Positions 38,516 to 60,926 of a stretch of DNA of 64,000 bases are shown one piece after another; the first letter of the stretch is position 1, and each line of letters opens with the position of its first letter. Under the pieces are notes generated by a model, which worked only from the letters and a program-made list of their open reading frames with translations, did not search any database and had not been told where the DNA came from. The stretch comes from Escherichia coli (GTDB lineage Bacteria; Pseudomonadota; Gammaproteobacteria; Enterobacterales; Enterobacteriaceae): the NCBI RefSeq assembly GCF_017348835.2, contig NZ_CP071375.1; one strand, given 5' to 3'. Both the position numbers and the translations under genes were made by a program.

Positions 38516-39655
38516 TTATCGCTGCGGCAAATAACGCAGCGGGTTTACGGATTTCCCCTTGTAACGAATTTCAAAATGCAAGCGTGTTGAACTGGTTCCG
38601 GTGCTACCCATGGTTGCTATTTTTTGCCCCGCCTTCACTTCTTGTTGTTCCCGGACCAGCATTGTGTCGTTATGGGCGTAGGCACTCAGGTAATCATCAT
38701 TATGTTTGATGATAATCAGATTACCGTAGCCGCGCAGCGCGTTACCGGCATAAACAACGCGGCCATCTGCGGTCGCGATAATTGCCTGTCCTTTGCTGCC
38801 TGCGATATCAATCCCCTTGTTGCCCCCCTCAGAAGCGCCAAAGGTTTCGATCACTTTGCCCTCAGTCGGCCAGCGCCAGGTGGAGATAGGCGTACTGGTT
38901 GATGTACTGCTGACAGTCGGCTCGGTTGTGCTTGCTGTTGGTACCGTTACAGGCGCTGTGACCGTGGTCGCAGTTGGCTTGTTGTTCGGCAACATTTTGT
39001 TAGCACTCTGTTCACCCGAAGACTCAGAATACGTAATTGTCGGTTGCGACGCAACAGCAACGGTGGAATTTTGTGCAGGCTTGATCACAACTCCTTGCTC
39101 TGCTGCGTCGGCCTGGGTAATGGCATTTCCGCCAGTGATTGGCGTACCGGAAGCATTACCCACCTGCAAGGTCTGACCAACGTTCAGCGCGTATGGTGCC
39201 TGAATATTGTTGCGCTGAGCAAGGTCACGGAAATCGTTGCCAGTAATCCAGGCGATATAGAAAAGTGTGTCGCCTTTTTTCACGGTATAGGTACTGCCGC
39301 TATAACTGCCTTTCGGAATGTTCCCATACTGACGGTTGTAGACGATACGTCCGTTTTCCATCTGTACCGGCTGCTGAGCTACTGGCTGCACTGGCTGGAT
39401 TTGCGGTTGTTGAGTAGCCTGAATTTGTGGCTGCTGTACCGGCTGAATTTGCGGTTGCTGGGTTGTAGACGTCGTTCCCATTTTCGGCGGTGGCGTAATC
39501 AACATACCAGAATTGGTATTTGCTGGCGCATTGCCATTAACGGAGCTGACCGGTGCCGGTGGATTTGAAGTGTCAGAACAGCCTGCCAGCCATAGCGAAA
39601 CCAGTGACAAAGCCGCAATGCGGCGAACGGTGAATTTTGGGCTTCCCGCGCTCAT
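38516..39655 (-). CDS. nlpD: LysM/M23-domain lipoprotein, activator of cell-wall amidase
   Basis: 379-aa ORF with a lipoprotein signal (LAGCS), Q/P-rich repeats (QQPQIQ), LysM and a C-terminal M23 domain; immediately upstream of rpoS. Confidence 0.92.
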
Positions 39656-48540: not shown

Positions 48541-48814
48541 GGGAGTTCTACCGCAGGGGCGGGGAATTCTCAGTGATATCCATCATCGCATCCAGTGCGC
48601 CCGGTTTATCCCCGCTGGCGCGGGGAACACTGCAGGTTTTTAGGGATAGTCACTGCAATACGCGGTTTATCCCCGCTGGCGCGGGGAACACGCAAGCCGC
48701 CCATTTGACGGTCACGCCAGTTACCGGTTTATCCCCGCTGGCGCGGGGAACACCCGGGATAGCCGATAACGATGGCGGCTCTGGGCGGTTTATCCCCGCT
48801 GGCGCGGGGAACAC
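48541..48814 (-). CRISPR. short type I-E CRISPR array: 4 intact 29-bp repeats plus one degenerate terminal repeat, 4 spacers
   Basis: CGGTTTATCCCCGCTGGCGCGGGGAACAC occurs at 48602-48630, 48663-48691, 48725-48753 and 48786-48814, with spacers of 32, 33 and 32 bp. A degenerate copy (18/29) lies at 48541-48569, leaving a 32-bp spacer at 48570-48601. Minus-strand repeat is GTGTTCCCCGCGCCAGCGGGGATAAACCG. Confidence 0.92.
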
Positions 48815-48910
48815 ACTAAGCATACATATCTGTTTTTAAACAAATTTATTCCACATCAACAATCTACCAACTAAATTCAAACATTTCCTTATTTTTAAAG
48901 AACACATAAC
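48815..48910 (-). promoter_or_regulatory. AT-rich CRISPR leader
   Basis: About 96 bp of AT-rich sequence between the last intact repeat and the cas2 remnant, the normal leader position for an E. coli I-E array. Confidence 0.55.
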
Positions 48911-49237
<327 letters not shown>

Positions 49238-49241
<4 letters not shown>

Positions 49242-50800
49242 TCAGCAGCCTCCTGCTTTTTCTCCCTGGCGGCTTTAGCACTTTGCTTCTCCGCCGATGT
49301 TGTAAAATATTTCTTGCGCGCGGTCATGACGCGTTCCAAATCAACGGGCTCATAAGGATTGGTGAATACACGCTCGTCAAAATCCTGACGTGCGAATAAC
49401 CAAATTTCCTTTTGCCATTTGCCGAGTAATTCATCCGCATCCTGACCTTCTTCAATTTGGCGCACTAACCTCAGGAAGCGATGCTGAGTTTTGTTCCAGA
49501 AGTCGATATCCACAAAACTGAAATCACCCCTTGCACCTTTTGGATCGGAGAACCATGCTTCTTTCAATGCACTCCGTAACAGACTCAGAATCCGTGAAGC
49601 CGTTTGCGCAGCCAGCCGCAGCTTCGGTATCTGGCCTTCTTTTTTATTGAGCAATAGAGGGAAATGGTGTTCGTACCAACAGCGAACCTTCATATCTTCG
49701 AAATCATAACCAAATCCCCACAAGCCTATTTTTGTCTGCTTTAGATTGCTGGCATTGAAAAGCTTCACTACCTGTGCGGGGAGTTCAGTATTGTTTTTTG
49801 ATTTACCTTCCTCTATGAGGCCTAACCAGTCGCGCCAGATTAAACCACCTGGTTGTGGTTTAACTGAGTAAAACTCTCCTCCCTCTTTAAGCGGCATACG
49901 GTAAGGTGTTAGAGGATGCCTCCACATGACGTATTGCACCCCATTGTTTTTAAGTGCCATCAAGCTCAATAGAGCGCCGCTCTGACTACCGCAAATATCG
50001 CAGTTGCCAATTGAGGTTGTCTTAAAATCAATACGAATACGCCGAGGCATTCCCCAGTAGGCCTGAAGTTTATTGACTTGTTCATCGGTTATCACAGCAC
50101 CATCCAGTTCACTGGTACGCGTCGGTGCAAGCCAGGGAAAGACCAGGTCATCAAAGGTTTTTGGTAAAGGTAAATCGGCTTCATCCTGTGGCATTACGTT
50201 AAGCCACAGCTTGCGCCACAAAGGGGGTTGTGGATTGCCCTGATACTCCAGCAATTCTATAAGTGTGGTCAGCGGCCCCCCGCCACGTAACCCCGGATAG
50301 TAACCGCGTCCACCTTTGGGAGCATTCAGCTGGATTGAAAAAAGTGCTAAAGGCACACAATGCAGGCATATATGCTGAATTGTATCTCGCTTAATAAAAT
50401 GGTCTTTATTTCGTTCTTTTGTTTGTTTTCCTGGTATGTCAGGAAGAAGCGAAGCAATAGAACTAACCTTAACTCTTAATTCTTCGAAATCCTGCATAAA
50501 TGAAGGTGAATCTGGCCCGAACTGGAAAGCATGTTCTAATAACAGCAATGCTTCCCGTAGCTTTTCGGCTTCCAGTCCGTCTTCCCAGATATCATCCCAA
50601 CGACGATGATCTTTTGGCGCGAAGCTGGTTTGTAGTAACCCCAGCAAAAACTGCCAGGCCGCCCCCTGGAGATCTGCCCGCGGCGCAGCGATATCGACAA
50701 CATTTTCATCCGCCAGATCGACTGGCGCCAGTTTGCCTGTCGTTCCGTCTTTAAAACGAACGGGCAACCACGGGGTTGTCAGAAGTGAAAACGAGTTCAT
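49238..50800 (-). CDS. casA: Cascade large subunit Cse1/CasA (variant distinct from the K-12 allele)
   Basis: 520 aa from MNSFSLLTTPWLPVRFKDGTTGKLAPVDL, a Cse1-type N-terminus; sits between cas3 and the cse2 start with the usual ATGA overlap. The start could instead be the upstream Met at 50860. Confidence 0.7.
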
Positions 50801-53538
50801 ACGCATCCTCTCGTAAAAAAGACCATCCAGGTCGGTTATCCATCCTTTTCGGTGTATCAACTATTCAGAGAGTCTCTGTCGCAGGCATCTCAATCAACCT
50901 TGCCAATCAATCCCTCCCTGGCCGAATACCCGCAACTTTCGTCATCAGTGACTAAAATCACGTTTGCCATCTCCGGATCTTGCCGTTGTTCAACACACCA
51001 CTGCCTGAACGCTTCCCCTTCCAGTAAAGAAAATTCATCCCGATGTTTTTTCCACCAGCTTCGACGCACTCTGGCAACGCTCATTTCCCATGCGTGAGCA
51101 CCGCTGGCATAAGGCTTCACCACACCGTCAATACAGGTAGCCAGCCACAGGGAAACAGACTCTTCAGCCAGACGTGTCGACAGCTTTTCCGGGAGGTAAT
51201 CGTTGATATTGGCGGCATAGCCGGGCCTGAAGTTCAGCATAAACTTTTTAGCCATTGCGCGATCGCAGTAATATTTGCCCACTTGCTCCTGCTCGCTGCG
51301 GGCAAATCCTTCCGGCATTACCACGTCCTCACCGTAGACGGATTCAATAAGAAGCCGGGCTGCGTGTGGCATCTGAATAGCGCCTTGCTCACGCAATACT
51401 CGCTGCGTCAGCCAGATTCGCCCATGATCGGGGTAGACATATGCGCTGTTACGCATCGCACTGCCAAACCATTCGTCACCCGGAGAGTCGTCCCAGACGG
51501 GGGCCAGAATCAGCAATTCAGGAGGGGAACGCTCGTCTTTTCCATCACGCTTTAACTGACCATTAATATCGCGAATATGCCGTTGTAATCGCCCCGCTCG
51601 CTGGATCAGCAAATCAATGGGGGCCAGGTCGGAGATCATTTCGTCCAGGTCAATATCCACACTTTGCTCAATTACTTGTGTACAAACAATGACTTGAGAT
51701 GATCTTTTTAAACTACAATTTTTACCAAAGCGTGCCAGCGTTTCCGTTTCAATTCGCTGGCGATCGCTAAAAGCAAAGCGGCTATGAAAAAGTGAAAGGC
51801 TGGAAGCAGGAATGACGCCGCGGGCAAGTAACTGACGATAAACCTTAATAGCGTCATCGACAGAATTCCGGATCCAGGCGATGCATTTCCCCTGACTTAC
51901 CGCTGATTCGATACGCGCAATACATTCTTGTTCGCTATGAAGCCAACCCACGCTCACGCTACGCTCAACGTCTTTGCGCGTCGCTACCCGGTGCGAATGC
52001 ACATCGGATTTCGTGACATGCGTCAGCCAGGGGTAATCATCCTTTTCCAGGAACGGAGCTTCTTGCTGGCCCTCTGTGCCACGCGCAAAGGCGGCGACAA
52101 GTTTGTCGCGCTGCTGTTGAGATAACGTAGCAGAAAGCAAAATGACGCTGTTTCCGCCACGCACCTGTCGCTCAATCAACCCTTCAAGAATGTACGACAT
52201 GTAAGCGTCACAGGCGTGGATCTCATCAGCCAGCAGGATTTTGTTACTCAACCCCAGAAGCCGCAGATTATTATGTTTAAACGGCATCACTGCCATCATC
52301 GCCTGATCCAGCGTGCCGACGCCAATTTCAGCCAGTAAAGCCTTCTTGTTACTGTCGGCAAACCAGGCTGCACATCCTTGACTGAACGCTTGTTCATCCG
52401 GTTCTTCTGACCCGACTAAATCACCGGACCAGAGTGATTCATTAAAGCGTTCCATTAATGTACGGGCGCTGTGTGCCAGCACCAGGCTGGGGCGGGATTC
52501 TGGCGAAAAGAAAGCAAGCCAGGTTTTGACCAGCCGATCGTACATGGCATTGGCCGTTGCCATTGTTGGCAGGCCAAAAAACAAACCCTGTGCTTTCCTC
52601 GCAGCCATCAACCTGTGCGCCAGGATAAGCGCCGCTTCTGTTTTACCTGCGCCAGTCACGTCTTCCAGAATAAATAACTTTGGCCCTGGCTGGCTGATAT
52701 CCAGATCCAGCACCTTTTGCTGTAATGGTGTCGGGTGCTCAATAAAAGGAAACAGCGTATTAATTCCGGTGAAAGGTGCGGTTTCTGCTTTTGGAGGAAA
52801 GACGGTTAAGGCGTTTTGAGCCTGAACTAAAGTTTTCTGCCAGTAATCTTTAATATCCATTGGGTGTGCGACGCGTGGAAAAAATCGCGTTGACGAACCC
52901 GTCCAGTCTGCGAGTACGACTGTTGCAGAGATATACCAGGAAAGTTGTTTTAAAAGTTCAACGCCCTCGTCATCATCCCAGAATGTGGGAATCTCTATGA
53001 GCGGAAACAGTGCCTTGATTTCAAGGAGAAAATCTCGCGCGGCAGCTTTGTCTTCAGGCAGAAAATTATCCAGCTCATCAATACGGTCAGGTGGTCGACC
53101 ATGATGCCCGGTAGTTATGGACATCCACATCTCTATTACACGTGTAAGTTTACGAGAAGAGAGTGAAGATGAAGGAAGCAACTCCTCACATTCACTTAAA
53201 TAATAATTCCACAGCCAGTAACCCAGCGTTGAATGAGAGATCTTTTCGTAATTCTTTCTGGAACCTTCCGGAATCTTGAGTTCAGGGGCCAGGTAAAGTT
53301 GCTGAAAAGAGCGGGCAAATTTTCCAATATCGTGCCAGCACAACAACCAGGCGAAAAATTGAGCCGCCTGTTCCTTGTCAGAAATCCCTAATTGACGAAA
53401 ATAATCAGCCAGCCCGAAGCAATTTCTTTTAACCATTAAATAGCCCATCGCGGCCACATCCAGCGAATGCCAGCAAAGAAGGTGTGAACCGCCCCGGAAA
53501 TCCTGGAGACTAAACTCCCTGAGAAAGAGGTAAACAGG

Positions 53539-53865
53539 ATGACTAAAAATACTCGTTTTTCCCCCGAAGTCCGTCAGCGGGCGATTCGTATGGTTCTGGA
53601 AAGTCAGGATGAATATGACTCACAGTGGGCGGCAATTTGTTCCATTGCCCCAAAGATTGGCTGTACGCCGGAGACTCTGCGTGTCTGGGTTCGCCAGCAT
53701 GAGCGGGATACCGGGAGTGGTGATGGTGGACTCACCACCGCTGAACGTCAGCGTCTGAAAGAGCTGGAACGTGAAAATCGTGAACTGCGCCGCAGTAACG
53801 ATATCCTTCGCCAGGCTTCCGCTTATTTTGCGAAGGCGGAGTTCGACCGCCTCTGGAAAAAATAA
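53539..53865 (+). CDS. IS3-family transposase OrfA (HTH / leucine zipper)
   Basis: 108-aa [25 protein letters not shown]... that I recognise as IS629/IS1203-type OrfA. Confidence 0.85.
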
Positions 53866-54752
53866 TGCCACTGCTGGATAAGCTGCGTGAGCAGTACGGG
53901 GTCGGACCGGTATGCAGCGAACTGCATATTGCCCCGTCAACGTATTACCATTGTCAGCAACAGCGACATCATCCGGATAAACGCAGTGCCCGTGCGCAGC
54001 ACGATGACTGGCTGAAGAAAGAGATACAGCGCGTATACGATGAAAATCACCAGGTATACGGTGTGCGTAAAGTCTGGCGTCAGTTGTTACGGGAAGGTAT
54101 CAGAGTGGCCAGATGCACTGTGGCACGTCTCATGGCAGTTATGGGACTTGCCGGTGTTCTCCGGGGTAAAAAGGTCCGCACTACCGTCAGCCGGAAAGCC
54201 GTTGCCGCATGCGACCGCGTAAACCGTCAGTTCGTGGCAGAACGTCCAGACCAGTTGTGGGTGGCTGATTTTACCTGGGTAAGCACATGGCAGGGCTTCG
54301 TTTATGTGGCGTTCATCATTGATGTGTTCGCCGGATACATCGTGGGATGGCAGGTCTCATCATCCATGGAAACAACATTCGTGCTGGATGCACTGGAGCA
54401 GGCGTTGTGGGCCCGTCGGCCGTCCGGCACAATCCATCACAGTGATAAAGGTTCTCAGTATGTATCGCTGGCCTACACGCAGCGGCTTAAGGAAGCCGGA
54501 TTACTGGCATCAACAGGGAGTACTGGCGACTCGTATGACAACGCGATGGCTGAGAGCATCAATGGTCTTTACAAAGCGGAGGTAATACACCGTAAGAGCT
54601 GGAAAAACCGGACAGAAGTGGAACTGGCCACACTAACGTGGGTGGACTGGTATAACAATCGACGATTGCTGGAAAGGCTGGGCCATATTCCTCCGGCAGA
54701 AGCAGAAAAAGCTTATTATGCTTCCATCGGAAATAATGATCTGGCAGCCTGA
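53865..54752 (+). CDS. IS3-family transposase OrfB (DDE integrase core)
   Basis: 295-aa ORF with an rve-type catalytic core (...HHSDKGSQY...YDNAMAESINGLYKAE...); its ATG overlaps the orfA stop (TAATG). Confidence 0.85.
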   Translation: MPLLDKLREQYGVGPVCSELHIAPSTYYHCQQQRHHPDKRSARAQHDDWLKKEIQRVYDENHQVYGVRKVWRQLLREGIRVARCTVARLMAVMGLAGVLRGKKVRTTVSRKAVAACDRVNRQFVAERPDQLWVADFTWVSTWQGFVYVAFIIDVFAGYIVGWQVSSSMETTFVLDALEQALWARRPSGTIHHSDKGSQYVSLAYTQRLKEAGLLASTGSTGDSYDNAMAESINGLYKAEVIHRKSWKNRTEVELATLTWVDWYNNRRLLERLGHIPPAEAEKAYYASIGNNDLAA

Positions 54753-55067
54753 GTTCACAGATAAAACACTCTCCAGGAAACCCGGGGCGGTTCAGTGATA
54801 GTCGTCACCCCCTTCTTTCTCGTCGCGTCGGGTTTTTCCCCAGAAATCAAAGAAAGTCACAATATTTTTATCCTTCAGTAAACTTAAAGGATATTTACGC
54901 ATATTTTAAAAATTATCTGTGATATATATCAGCCAATAAAACATTTATATTGTGAATAAATTTATGATTTTCATTTGAAATTCATAATAATAAATAGAGA
55001 CAATATATTCACATAAAAAATATAAATTTAAAAAAGGGTGCAGGAGACCAAACCATCACAATTCAAT

Positions 55068-55089
55068 ACGCGGGGTTTTACCCCCGCGT
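55068..55089 (-). terminator. hairpin terminator downstream of the hok-like gene
   Basis: acgcggggttttacccccgcgt stem-loop 6 nt after the hok stop, followed on the minus strand by a T-rich tract. Confidence 0.5.
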
Positions 55090-55094
55090 GGTGG

Positions 55095-55247
55095 CTACTT
55101 CTTCGATTCGTAAGCGAGAACAGCCTTAAACTCCATACCACGTTCCCTGATACTCAACTCACACAACGAGTCGCCTACCATCAGCGTGAATCCCAGTACT
55201 GTACAACACAGTACGATGATTGCCACAAGGGCATATTTTGTCAGCAT
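55095..55247 (-). CDS. Hok/Gef-family small membrane toxin
   Basis: 50-aa [53 protein letters not shown] with an N-terminal TM helix and the conserved SLCE...AYES C-terminal pattern; not in the supplied ORF track because it is below the size cutoff. Confidence 0.75.
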
Positions 55248-55308
55248 GTCTGTGTAAGTTCACAGAGATATTGCAATTGCCTCCGGATAAGTAAGGGGAG
55301 ATTGCACT

Positions 55309-56330
55309 ATGCAAATGCAGCATCTGATGGTTGGCTATCCTAAGTACTACCAAACGGCCGATTATGCGTTGAGGCTTTCAGTGATGGCTGATATAGCAAC
55401 AATGAGAATGAAGGCTCTGCACTTCTGGGATAAACACGGTATTTCTGCAGCTTCTGAAGCCTTTGGCGTGTCCTGCCGCACGCTTTACTGGTGGCGTCAG
55501 TTACTGAACAAGGAAGGACCTGAGGGGCTAATCCCGCACAGTAAGGCACCTCTGGTGCGACGAAAAAAACACTGGCATCCCGATGTGCTGAAAGAGATTC
55601 GACGCCTCAGGACAGAGCTGCCGAACCTCGGTAAAGAGCAGATTTTTGTTCGCCTGAAGCCCTGGTGCGAACAGCGCTATCTGGCCTGTCCGAGTGTTTC
55701 CACCATCGGCAGAATGATCGCTGCCGCACATGATAAAATGCGGATGATACCTGTGCGTCTGGGATCGCGGGGGAAGGCACTGCTTGTCAAAAAGCGGTCT
55801 GCCAAACCCCGCAGGCCAAAGCACTACCGCCCGGTAAAGACAGGTGAGCTCATTGGGATGGACGCCATTGAGCTCAGAATGGGCGAACTGCGTCGCTATG
55901 TCATCACCATGATCGACGAATGCAGCAATTACGCGCTGGCTGTGCCGTCACTCAACAGTGATATCGTCAATCACTTCTTCAGCCGCGCAGCCCGGTTGTT
56001 CCCGGTCGGTATCAGCCAGATAATCACAGATAACGGAAAAGAGTTCCTGGGAAACTTCGACAAAACGCTGCAGGAAGCCGCTATCAAACACCTCTGGACC
56101 TATCCCTACACGCCAAAAATGAACGCTATCTGTGAACGTTTTAACCGGACGTTAAGAGAGCAGTTTATTGAATTTAATGAGATTTTACTCTTTGAAGATC
56201 TGGCGCTATTTAACCAGAAGCTGGCGGAATATCTGGTGCTGTATAACAGCAAAAGACCCCACAAGGCGCTCGCACTAATGACGCCCGTGGAATATATTTT
56301 AAAAGAGAATAAAAATTGCAATATGTGGTG
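55309..56330 (+). CDS. DDE (rve/integrase-core) transposase, IS481-family-like; element ends not resolved
   Basis: N-terminal HTH (ISAASEAFGVSCRTLYWW) followed by an integrase core (ITDNGKEF...YTPKMNAICERFNRTLREQ...YNSKRPHKAL). The listed ORF runs on to 56739 into cysH antisense, which I take as read-through; the true 3' end is estimated near 56300-56330. Confidence 0.6.
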
Positions 56331-56606
56331 GACCCATACAATGTCTTGCCTCCCTGCAAAGAAGAGACTAACATTCGAATTGCTTAGGTTCGAACGCTGG
56401 CCTCAGGTTGATAGAAATATCGCCTGGGGCTTTTGTCCATCTGGAACCTCGCGAATGCTTAACGCCAGACAGCCTCAAGCACCCGACGCCATTCTATACC
56501 TGATAATTCTTCCAGCGGCGTTCACGTTTAAAATCAGGAATGCTGCTCGCAAAATAAAAACGCCCCCATCATTTCTGACAGAGGCGTTTAATTTATCCGG
56601 CAATAT

Positions 56607-59127: not shown

Positions 59128-60926
59128 TAGTAGACATCTCGCTGATAACGGCGCTCTACGCGCAGCTCACTTAAAAATTCATCCGCCGCTTCGGTGTCCA
59201 TGCCACCAAATTCGGCAATCACTTCCAGAAGTGCCTGCTCAACGTCTTTCGCCATGCGATTAGCGTCGCCGCAGACATAAATGTGGGCACCGTCATTGAT
59301 CCAGCGCCACAGCTCCGCGCCCTGTTCGCGCAGTTTATCTTGTACGTAAACTTTTTCTTTTTGGTCGCGCGACCAGGCGAGATCGATCCGCGTCAGCACA
59401 CCCTCTTTGACGTAGCGCTGCCACTCCACCTGATACAGGAAGTCTTCCGTAAAATGCGGATTGCCAAAGAACAGCCAGTTTTTACCTGGCGCTTCGTCAG
59501 CGGCGCGTTGCTGCATAAAGGCGCGGAACGGCGCAATACCGGTGCCTGGGCCAATCATAATCACCGGGGTTTCCGGGTTAGCGGGCAGGCGGAAGTTATC
59601 GTTATGTTCGATAAATACGCGGACTTCGCCCTCTTCTTCCACGCGGTCCGCGAGGAAGCTGGAGGCACCACCAGCACGGGCGCGGCCTTCCACGTCGTAA
59701 CGCACCACACCAACGGTGACGTGTACTTCGTTCTCGACTTCCGCCTGCGAGGAGGCAATGGAATAGAGACGCGGCGTCAGCGGGCGCAGCAGATTAATTA
59801 GCGCTTCGGCATCAAGCTGTGCCGGGGAGAAACGCACCATGTCAACAATCGGCGTCGTCGCGGCGTAATGCTGTAACTTCGCTTTATCGCCCACCAGCGG
59901 CAGCAGTGTTTCACTGCGGGTAAGCGTGGCGTAATTCTCAACAATGTTGGCGGTGTTGACGGTCAGTTCGAAGTGCCACTGTAGCGCTTCGTTCAGAGGC
60001 AACGTTTTGCCCTCGACGGTGACAGGTTCATCGCCTTTCAGCCACAGCAGTTCGACAAGTTCTTTCACTAGTGCCGGATCGTTCTGATACCAGACACCCA
60101 GCGCGTCACCCGGCTGGTAACGCAGGCCCGAGTCACCTAAGTCAATTTCGATATGGCGAACGTCTTTTTCAGAGTTACGCCCGGTAATTTTCTGGTTAAC
60201 CGAAAGGCTCGCCACCAGCGGCGCGTCTTTGCTGTACGGGCTGGTGTGGATTTCATTTACCACGCCAGTAGCGACGGATTGCAAAGGTGCCGCGACAGGC
60301 GCACGCGATTTAAGCGCATCAACCACGCGGGCGCGCCACTCGCTGGCAGCAGCCTGGTATTCAACGTCGGCGTCGACACGGTCGAGCAGGCGTTCACCGC
60401 CCAGTTCCGCCAGCTTGCTGTCGAAATCTTTCCCGGACTGGCAGAAAAATTCATAAGAACTATCGCCGAGGCTAAACACGGCAAAAGCGGTATTTTCCAG
60501 CTTCGGCGCTTTTTTGGAGAACAGGAACTTATGCAGCGCGACGGCTTCTTCCGGCGGTTCCCCTTCTCCTTGCGTTGACGTCACCACGATAAGCAGTTTT
60601 TCGCTGGCGATTTGTTTGAATTTATAGTCGCCCGCGTTCACCAGCTTAACGTTCAGTTTTGCCGTCAATAAATCATCGCGTAATGCTTCAGCAACCCGGC
60701 GCGCATTGCCGGTTTGCGAAGCAGAGATAATAGTTATACCCGGCATTTCTGCGGCTGGCGCTGGCGTCGCTGCAAGCGCAGCAGGCTGCTGATTGAGCAC
60801 GCCCCAGAAATAGCCAGAAACCCAGGCAAGCTGGGTGGGAGTTAAATCGGTCGTGGCCGCCTGAAGGCGTGCCAGTTGCTCCGGGTTCAACGGAAGCAAC
60901 GCGGAAGGTGGGACCTGTGTCGTCAT
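59127..60926 (-). CDS. cysJ: sulfite reductase flavoprotein alpha subunit
   Basis: 599-aa ORF with flavodoxin-like and FAD/NADPH-binding domains. Confidence 0.93.

Follow-up and report, generated by a model that had tools for sequence, protein, structure and literature searches.

An AT-rich tract as the probable 5' regulatory region of a non-K-12 type I-E cas3 gene interrupted by IS629 in Escherichia coli

RESULTS AND DISCUSSION

An extremely AT-rich tract lies between hok and cas3

The AT-rich, noncoding tract at positions 54861 to 55030 of the stretch of Escherichia coli DNA analyzed here (64,000 nucleotides, referred to as the window) is probably the native 5' regulatory region of a non-K-12 type I-E cas3 gene. 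Comparison across enterobacterial genera supports this reading through a palindrome that keeps a similar distance from the start codon in most lineages. At least from position 39521 to position 60310, the window matches the E. coli PE164 sequence (NZ_CP114128) with 100% identity. Along the minus strand, the order is cysH, the sok/mok region, an IS481-family element, hok, the hok 3' hairpin with its T-run, and the AT-rich tract, which is followed by the 5' end of cas3, IS629, the remainder of cas3 down to position 50890, and casA.

54861 to 55030, minus strand: AT-rich noncoding tract, 170 bp, 17.1% GC; probable upstream regulatory region and 5' untranslated region (UTR) of the non-K-12 type I-E cas3

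The original prediction described positions 54903 to 55067 as strongly AT-rich with A/T tracts, and the composition agrees with this. The interval has a GC content of 20.6%, versus 52.9% for the whole 64-kb window, and its core (54903 to 55030) has only 14.8%. Six A/T homopolymer runs of at least 4 nt are present in the tract, W-runs reach 23 nt, and TpA steps occur 15.9 times per 100 nt, versus 4.0 in the window, a fourfold difference. In a scan of the 64 kb, 0.08% of all 165-bp segments had a GC content this low, every one of them overlapping this locus, which is also the single patch in the window with a GC content of ≤25% over 128 bp. The limits of the interval fared less well than its composition. 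The 165-bp segment with the lowest GC content in the 64 kb has its left edge exactly at 54861, and the right-hand 37 nt of the predicted interval (55031 to 55067) have a GC content of 40.5% and belong to the hok 3' UTR, since strains without cas genes keep the hok-side sequence down to 55029. The AT-rich patch is real, and its best limits are probably 54861 and 55030 rather than 54903 and 55067.

Within the tract, Rfam gave no match at an E value of ≤1 (the whole Rfam output consisted of ALIL in IS629, sok beyond the second insertion sequence [IS] element, and subthreshold noise), and the list of open reading frames (ORFs) contained none of at least 25 amino acids (aa). Both results speak against an unannotated item encoded here, for example, a small RNA or protein or a promoter on the plus strand that reads antisense to hok. 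Two plus-strand consensus promoter matches at 54975 to 55009 could be read in favor of such an item, as could the frequency with which spurious promoters arise in AT-rich DNA; with the number of promoter matches in the region at chance level, it is nevertheless very improbable.

The cas3 start codon is very probably GTG 54860

The following elements at the 5' end of cas3 bear on the position of its start codon.

54858 to 54860, minus strand: GTG, the probable true cas3 start; position conserved in 13 species, codon 15 of the annotated ORF
54871 to 54875, minus strand: AAGGA, Shine-Dalgarno (SD)-like, read from the sequence, 10 nt upstream of GTG 54860
54900 to 54902, minus strand: ATG, the RefSeq-annotated cas3 start, probably inside the 5' UTR

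A cas3 start codon at 54902, as assumed in the original prediction, did not stand up to comparison with homologs in 13 species, which start at the position of GTG 54860. The SD-like sequence, the N termini of homologs, the 13 species, the alleles with an additional T described below, and the edge of the lowest-GC segment at 54861 together indicate that GTG 54860 is very probably the cas3 start and that ATG 54902 is an annotation artifact. No SD sequence was found upstream of ATG 54902 when the sequence was inspected. In all 13 species, which were recovered with a degenerate DNA pattern, a GTG, TTG, or ATG codon is present at the position of GTG 54860 or one codon downstream. Cas3 homologs in other Enterobacteriaceae have their N termini 5 to 6 residues before a conserved WGK (MSIYNYWGK, MELFDYWGK, and MYQYWGK), which corresponds to the GTG position; the protein search with the Cas3 N terminus returned mostly fragments and is informative for N-terminal ends only. 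In addition, the upstream ATG is missing or out of frame in E. albertii, E. coli SCPM-O-B-8794, Escherichia sp. MOD1, a Pseudocitrobacter contig, and about 130 E. coli genomes.

One additional T is present between the ATG and the GTG in about 130 complete E. coli genomes, Escherichia sp. MOD1, and the Pseudocitrobacter contig, which read AAGTTTTAC where others have AAGTTTAC (the equivalent of 54878 to 54884). All three of the inspected E. coli cas3 genes with this insertion are labeled "frameshifted" by PGAP. Two alleles with the additional T preserve the 885-codon ORF from the GTG while being 137 substitutions apart, and their pN/pS ratio of 0.155 is comparable to the values of 0.15 to 0.21 between pairs of "intact" cas3 alleles. 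This pattern suggests that the ORF from the GTG is under purifying selection in these genes and that the "frameshifted" labels are probably false pseudogene calls.

A CRP/FNR-like palindrome keeps its distance from the start codon

Two allele groups of the region were found in E. coli, with approximately 96 to 97% and 89 to 90% identity to the window. In an alignment of seven alleles, the proximal ~60 nt and the distal ~25 nt of the region were nearly invariant, and the central ~50 nt diverged between the groups. Four candidate elements precede the GTG.

54918 to 54933, strand not assigned: CRP/FNR-family-like palindrome GCTGATATATATCACA, 8 of 10 matches to TGTGA-N6-TCACA
54912 to 54917, minus strand: GATAAT, a -10-like hexamer 1 nt downstream of the palindrome, invariant in the seven E. 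coli alleles
54903 to 54932, minus strand: CTGATA-18-TAAAAT, a promoter candidate from the consensus scan, 9 of 12 matches
54891 to 54897, minus strand: TAAATAT, a weak -10-like sequence that would place the palindrome center near -41.5/-42.5 (class II geometry)

The inner part of the palindrome, TGATATATATCA, is perfectly palindromic. The best CRP-like 16-mer is centered 63 to 68 nt upstream of the start codon in 9 to 10 of 15 enterobacterial lineages (P ≤ 0.004 per lineage against a shuffling null, with shared ancestry ignored). The lineages with a site at this position are E. coli, E. albertii, Phytobacter, Pluralibacter, Salmonella, Intestinirhabdus, a Citrobacter metagenome-assembled genome (MAG), K. 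grimontii, and two metagenomic contigs. The consensus of the positioned site across genera is [G/T]TGA-N6-TCA[C/A], with flanks too diverged for alignment by eye. In a site-anchored comparison of 10 lineages, G-5, A-4, T+4, C+5, and A+6 were invariant and the flanks carried little information; anchoring on the best CRP match is partly circular, and the independent evidence is the distance to the start codon. Constancy of this distance across genera is expected of a real regulatory region. Among E. coli alleles, the right half, TCACA, shows no variation, and the left half-site is degraded in the group 2 alleles and in E. albertii. C. sedlakii, K. indica, Erwinia oleae, and one E. coli lineage lack the palindrome or have it at another place. 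In the 13 species and the metagenomic contigs, the 200 nt preceding cas3 are AT-rich, with a GC content of 21 to 34% in most lineages. Any regulator acting at 54918 to 54933 may be CRP, an FNR-type protein, or another protein.

The core promoter is less clearly marked than the palindrome. Promoter prediction by a sigma-70 consensus scan of 54600 to 55450 yielded 4 sites, versus 2.3 ± 1.3 expected by shuffling, which is not above chance. Among CTGATA-18-TAAAAT, GATAAT, and TAAATAT, there is no -35/-10 pair that is both strong and conserved across alleles, and the -35 element of the first is missing from the group 2 alleles. A TATAAT hexamer occurs at a place similar to that of GATAAT in Phytobacter and Pluralibacter. 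In several taxa, -10-like hexamers would set the palindrome center at -38.5 to -44.5, near class II CRP geometry, with centers of -38.5 to -41.5 in E. albertii, K. grimontii, locus L015, and the Citrobacter MAG. Class II geometry would be compatible with a transcription start site (TSS) about 24 nt before the GTG, which would imply a 5' UTR of about 20 to 25 nt containing the SD sequence. Where a near-consensus -10 element (GATAAT or TATAAT) lies 1 to 4 nt past the site, as it does in E. coli, a protein bound to the palindrome would be a repressor. A terminator scan of 54600 to 55450 found one terminator-like match, located in the IS end, and a literature search for TSS, ChIP, or reporter data on the non-K-12 cas3 variant found none. 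The proposal of a promoter region upstream of cas3 thus gains comparative support from the position of the palindrome and from the inheritance of the tract with cas, with sigma-70 matches remaining at chance level.

The chance-level count of promoter-like sites would also suit a tract without function, a junction that remained after the cas island was acquired horizontally; such filler would attract H-NS and IS elements, and cas3 would be silent or expressed from another place. E. coli type I-E systems are largely silent, the central ~50 nt diverges freely between the allele groups, and insertions of IS421 and IS629 cluster around the tract. However, filler would not account for the near invariance of the proximal ~60 nt in E. 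coli, for a palindrome-to-start distance kept across genera whose flanks are otherwise unalignable, or for the SD sequence and conserved start codon downstream of the palindrome, and we consider this reading unlikely. A native cas3 regulatory region remains the preferred one.

As a separate observation, the distal conserved block AATTTATATTkTTTATGTGAATAT (55003 to 55033) includes another TGTGA half-site, which lies about 78 bp farther upstream than the main palindrome and is conserved in both allele groups of E. coli.

The tract is inherited with cas3 and not with hok

The cas3 5' end, the tract, and the hok terminator occur together in 2768 of the 5426 complete E. coli genomes. In cas-less B2 strains, F11, 536, and Nissle among them, hok is kept down to window position 55029 and is then joined directly to iap. 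Because these strains keep hok but lack 54861 to 55028, the tract travels with the cas3 module and not with hok.

55031 to 55094, minus strand: hok 3' UTR, with a GC-rich hairpin at 55069 to 55088 and a T-run at 55031 to 55036
55095 to 55247, minus strand: hok toxin coding sequence, 50 aa, annotated by PGAP as the Hok/Gef family protein WP_000956458.1

The NCBIfam HokA match of this gene (53 bits) is below the cutoff of 89 bits, and Rfam places sok at 56335 to 56484 with 105 bits (gathering score, 59). A Hok toxin and a sok/mok 5' region are thus both present, as in a hok/sok type I toxin-antitoxin locus, which is split here by the IS481-family element. The tract lies directly downstream of hok, and in a predicted fold the U-run at 55031 to 55037 is base-paired with the final codons of hok, as might be expected if the tract were a 3' UTR or fold-back element of hok/sok rather than part of cas3. 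Such an assignment is extremely improbable in view of the cas-less strains, in which hok ends at 55029 and 54861 to 55028 are missing; Rfam and hok homology stop at the same boundary, and within 54903 to 55067 only 55031 to 55067 is hok sequence. A role for hok/sok as an addiction module for cas was considered and rejected as lacking support, since hok is unchanged in cas-less strains.

The hok hairpin has no immediate U-run, the U-run being 32 nt further on, so that termination may leak. Since hok, cysH, and cas3 are all on the minus strand, cas3 could be expressed mainly by read-through from its codirectional neighbors, with the tract acting only as an H-NS-bound roadblock or attenuator. In other genera, however, the palindrome and the AT-rich tract sit behind different upstream neighbors (a cysH terminator or unrelated genes), and the cas3 genes of K-12 and, according to a literature summary, S. 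Typhi have promoters of their own (PMC7019758, PMC8039139). Read-through is therefore quite unlikely to be the main source of cas3 transcripts, and a promoter region belonging to cas3 itself remains favored.

In E. coli ws5-3 and O169:H41 F6326-C1 (loci L004 and L006), an IS421 (IS4-like) element is inserted in the hok 3' hairpin, at the equivalent of approximately position 55084. IS elements appear to target the junction between hok and cas3 repeatedly.

Comparison with known cas3 and cas promoters and the possible role of H-NS

The original prediction likened the tract to sequences that H-NS silences at E. coli cas promoters. In composition the tract is of the H-NS type, being AT-rich, rich in TpA steps, and far below the window in GC content (17.1% versus 52.9%, over 170 bp). 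A search for the H-NS motif TCGATAAATT (tCGATAAATT-like) with up to two mismatches found one match, with two mismatches, at 54953 to 54962; such matches are common across the window and are not discriminating. By composition and by analogy with K-12 and S. Typhi, silencing of the tract by H-NS is plausible. In K-12, cas3 mRNA is 8-fold higher in Δhns cells, in stationary phase only (PMC4782391), and deletion of hns had a slight effect on a cas3 reporter (PMC7019758). The S. Typhi cas3 gene is an independent transcription unit silenced by H-NS, as reported in a summary (PMC8039139) of the work of Medina-Aparicio et al. (2017).

The K-12 cas3 (ygcB) promoter region occupies the same slot (cysH, hok/sok remnant, cas3), lying between the sokX remnant and cas3. 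It has a CRP-type site and shows a modest, growth phase-dependent H-NS effect (PMC7019758, PMC4782391), and the promoter, which is activated by CRP, lies within about 90 bp of the ORF (PMC7019758). The reports on CRP and cas3 are in conflict (PMC8616872), and the S. Typhi gene is cited, after Medina-Aparicio (2017), as not being regulated by CRP in minimal medium (bioRxiv 10.64898/2026.02.26.708173). The cas3 variant of K-12 is another one, and its upstream sequence, with 34 to 37% GC compared with 17% for the tract, is unrelated except for a short shared string, GCTGATAT...GATAAT. Homology of the tract to the K-12 upstream region was rejected, as the two are unalignable except for GCTGATAT..GATAAT. 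The CRP site reported in K-12 (TATGAGCAGCATCGAA) differs from the palindrome in the window, the K-12 gene starts with ATG after a strong GGGAGG SD sequence whereas the cas3 in the window has GTG and AAGGA, and hok is deleted in K-12 but present here. The closest variant is the S. Typhi cas3, with about 64% identity in the N-terminal region; in Salmonella, the palindrome position and the GTG start are as in the window, but hok is absent upstream of the S. Typhi gene.

Another AT-rich cas regulatory region resembling the tract is found in K-12, where the cas3-casA spacer of 414 bp (29.5% GC) houses Pcas, the casA promoter; H-NS is described as silencing this promoter and LeuO as lifting the silencing (Pul 2010 and Westra 2010, as cited in PMC4782391). 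Pcas is, however, a different promoter in a different place. The cas3-casA spacer in the window (50793 to 50889) is 97 bp long with a GC content of 46%, which leaves the tract in front of cas3 as the sole strongly AT-rich patch of the cas locus in the window. This short spacer contains a small hairpin and a T-run (GACCTGGATGGTCTTTTTT), and it raises the questions of where transcription of casA to cas2 starts and whether the genes beyond cas3 likewise depend on the tract.

The arrangement of these elements suggests how an intact allele might work, with the promoter activity, the identity of the regulator, and H-NS binding inferred from sequence. The hok 3' hairpin and T-run would insulate cas3 against upstream transcription, and the approximately 95 bp of extremely AT-rich DNA that follow (54934 to 55030) would be a likely platform for H-NS nucleation. 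The putative CRP/FNR-family operator at 54918 to 54933 would overlap or adjoin weak sigma-70 elements (GATAAT, TAAAAT, and TAAATAT), and a short 5' UTR with the AAGGA SD sequence would lead to translation of cas3 from GTG 54860. Expression of cas3 would then be low and regulated, through a weak start codon, a weak core promoter, and activator dependence and/or H-NS silencing.

Cas3 is the limiting factor for type I-E interference in K-12. Our tentative generalization, which falls short of an even chance, is that the non-K-12 type I-E cas3 genes of Enterobacteriaceae share a conserved, undescribed control architecture composed of an operator, a non-ATG start, and an H-NS-type AT tract. Its operator would be of the CRP/FNR family, with its center about 65 bp before the conserved non-ATG start codon (GTG in most cases), a detail that we put forward with the same reserve. 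If this is true, the RefSeq ATG for this cas3 in the inspected E. coli genomes is wrong by 14 codons, and about 130 E. coli cas3 genes with the additional T are intact genes. The annotated start of this common E. coli variant probably lies 14 codons too far upstream, so that an indel in the 5' UTR is read as a false "frameshift pseudogene" in about 130 complete genomes and counts of strains with "intact CRISPR-Cas" are affected. The position-conserved CRP/FNR-like site would also be a testable handle on cas3 regulation in O157:H7 and in about half of the complete E. coli genomes, which have this variant. The tract itself is an uncharacterized ortholog of known cas3 promoter regions and an ordinary relic, not a new kind of element, and the points that might interest specialists are the start codon correction and the conserved operator only.

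IS629 separates the tract from the cas3 body in PE164

As originally predicted, an IS629 element separates the tract from the body of cas3.

53485 to 54794, plus strand: IS629 (IS3 family), 1310 bp, with the transposase on the strand opposite to cas3
54795 to 54860, minus strand: cas3 5' stub, 22 codons from the GTG (36 from ATG 54902), ending with CAC (54795 to 54797) and then TGA
50890 to 53484, minus strand: cas3 body, without a promoter, SD sequence, or start codon of its own

The element is IS629 by its length, ends, frameshift signal, target duplication, and near identity to a known copy. Along its full 1310 bp it shares 99.5% identity with the IS629 copy annotated in phage BP-4795, its ends are TGAACCGCCCCGG (terminal repeats), and alignment to intact alleles shows a 3-bp target duplication, CAC, at 53482 to 53484 and 54795 to 54797. 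The ALIL frameshift pseudoknot scored 120 bits in Rfam, and the IS3 transposase match scored 312 bits in NCBIfam. The stub and the body rejoin exactly as in intact alleles (loci L002 and L007). Homologs of this cas3 contain PF18019 (Cas3_HD), and its 5' end encodes an N-terminal HD domain (WGK ... HLLxWHSLDVA) that is contiguous with the helicase body in intact alleles.

The stub-IS629 junction was found in 1 of the 5426 complete E. coli genomes, that of PE164, and one strain with a 100% identical tract (locus L007) has an intact cas3. The insertion is therefore recent. Res13-Sevr-PER07-33, a strain with an intact allele, matches the window at 100% over 301 bp comprising the tract and its flanks, and O157:H7 likewise has an intact allele. 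IS629 inactivates chromosomal genes elsewhere in Shiga toxin-producing (STEC) and other E. coli strains, and the present case is alike, with a full-length element, a 3-bp duplication, and an interrupted coding region. Apart from its occurrence only in PE164 among the 5426 genomes, nothing notable sets it apart.

The predicted 36-codon stub reading into the IS end exists as an ORF from ATG 54902, and its stop codon, TGA (54792 to 54794), is formed by the first three bases of the IS629 end. Since the evidence favors GTG 54860 as the start, the stub most likely has 22 codons and 54861 to 54902 is 5' UTR. The idea that the region can now drive only a stub holds for translation; transcription would continue antisense into IS629. 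In PE164, where IS629 follows codon 22, translation from the region would yield no more than a peptide of 22 aa, or of 36 aa with the ATG as the start, terminated by the TGA at the IS end; past the stub, the transcript would be untranslated and antisense through 1.3 kb of IS629. The plus-strand GC skew is positive across 53950 to 54650, so the antisense RNA would be C-rich and G-poor. We infer Rho-dependent polarity here; termination by Rho is likely, as it is favored by an RNA that is untranslated, C-rich, and G-poor.

Outward transcription from IS629 into the cas3 body, which had been raised as possible, has no sequence support: no minus-strand sigma-70-like site pointing into the body was found in 53300 to 54850, which covers IS629 and its left end. 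In the body, a canonical in-frame start is first encountered at GTG 53457, past His41 of the first HD motif. PGAP annotates an 886-aa "Cas3'" (WP_410054725.1) that begins at ATT 53550 on the minus strand, inside IS629. This ATT was rejected as a genuine cas3 start; it has no SD sequence and is probably an annotation artifact made to span the disrupted gene. The cas3 body in PE164 would thus be neither properly transcribed nor translatable.

The CRISPR-Cas system of PE164 is defunct regardless of the IS629 insertion. In the identical PE164 record, PGAP annotates a 105-nt casB remnant overlapping cas2e, with the casB/cas2 junction at approximately 49137 to 49165. It follows that a deletion has removed cas7, cas5, cas6e, and cas1 along with the larger part of casB; the CRISPR repeats left at approximately 48600 to 48870 number 4 to 5. 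For PE164 itself, the orphaned cas3 promoter region is a relic in a dead CRISPR locus and of little consequence.

Further observations on the region

In Pseudocitrobacter vendiensis CPO20170097T (NZ_CALSBS010000035.1; locus L031), the hok terminator, the tract, and the cas3 5' end are nearly identical to those of the E. coli group 2 alleles, which suggests either a recent transfer between genera or assembly contamination.

The IS481-family element at 55252 to 56340 is 1089 bp long, and its NCBIfam match (213.9 bits) is just below the cutoff of 224 bits. It is flanked by a target site duplication, ATGTCT, at 55246 to 55251 and 56341 to 56346, is inserted 4 nt upstream of the hok ATG, and lies between hok and the mok/sok 5' region that belongs to it. 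The transposase ORF runs out of the element without meeting a stop codon and continues to 56739.
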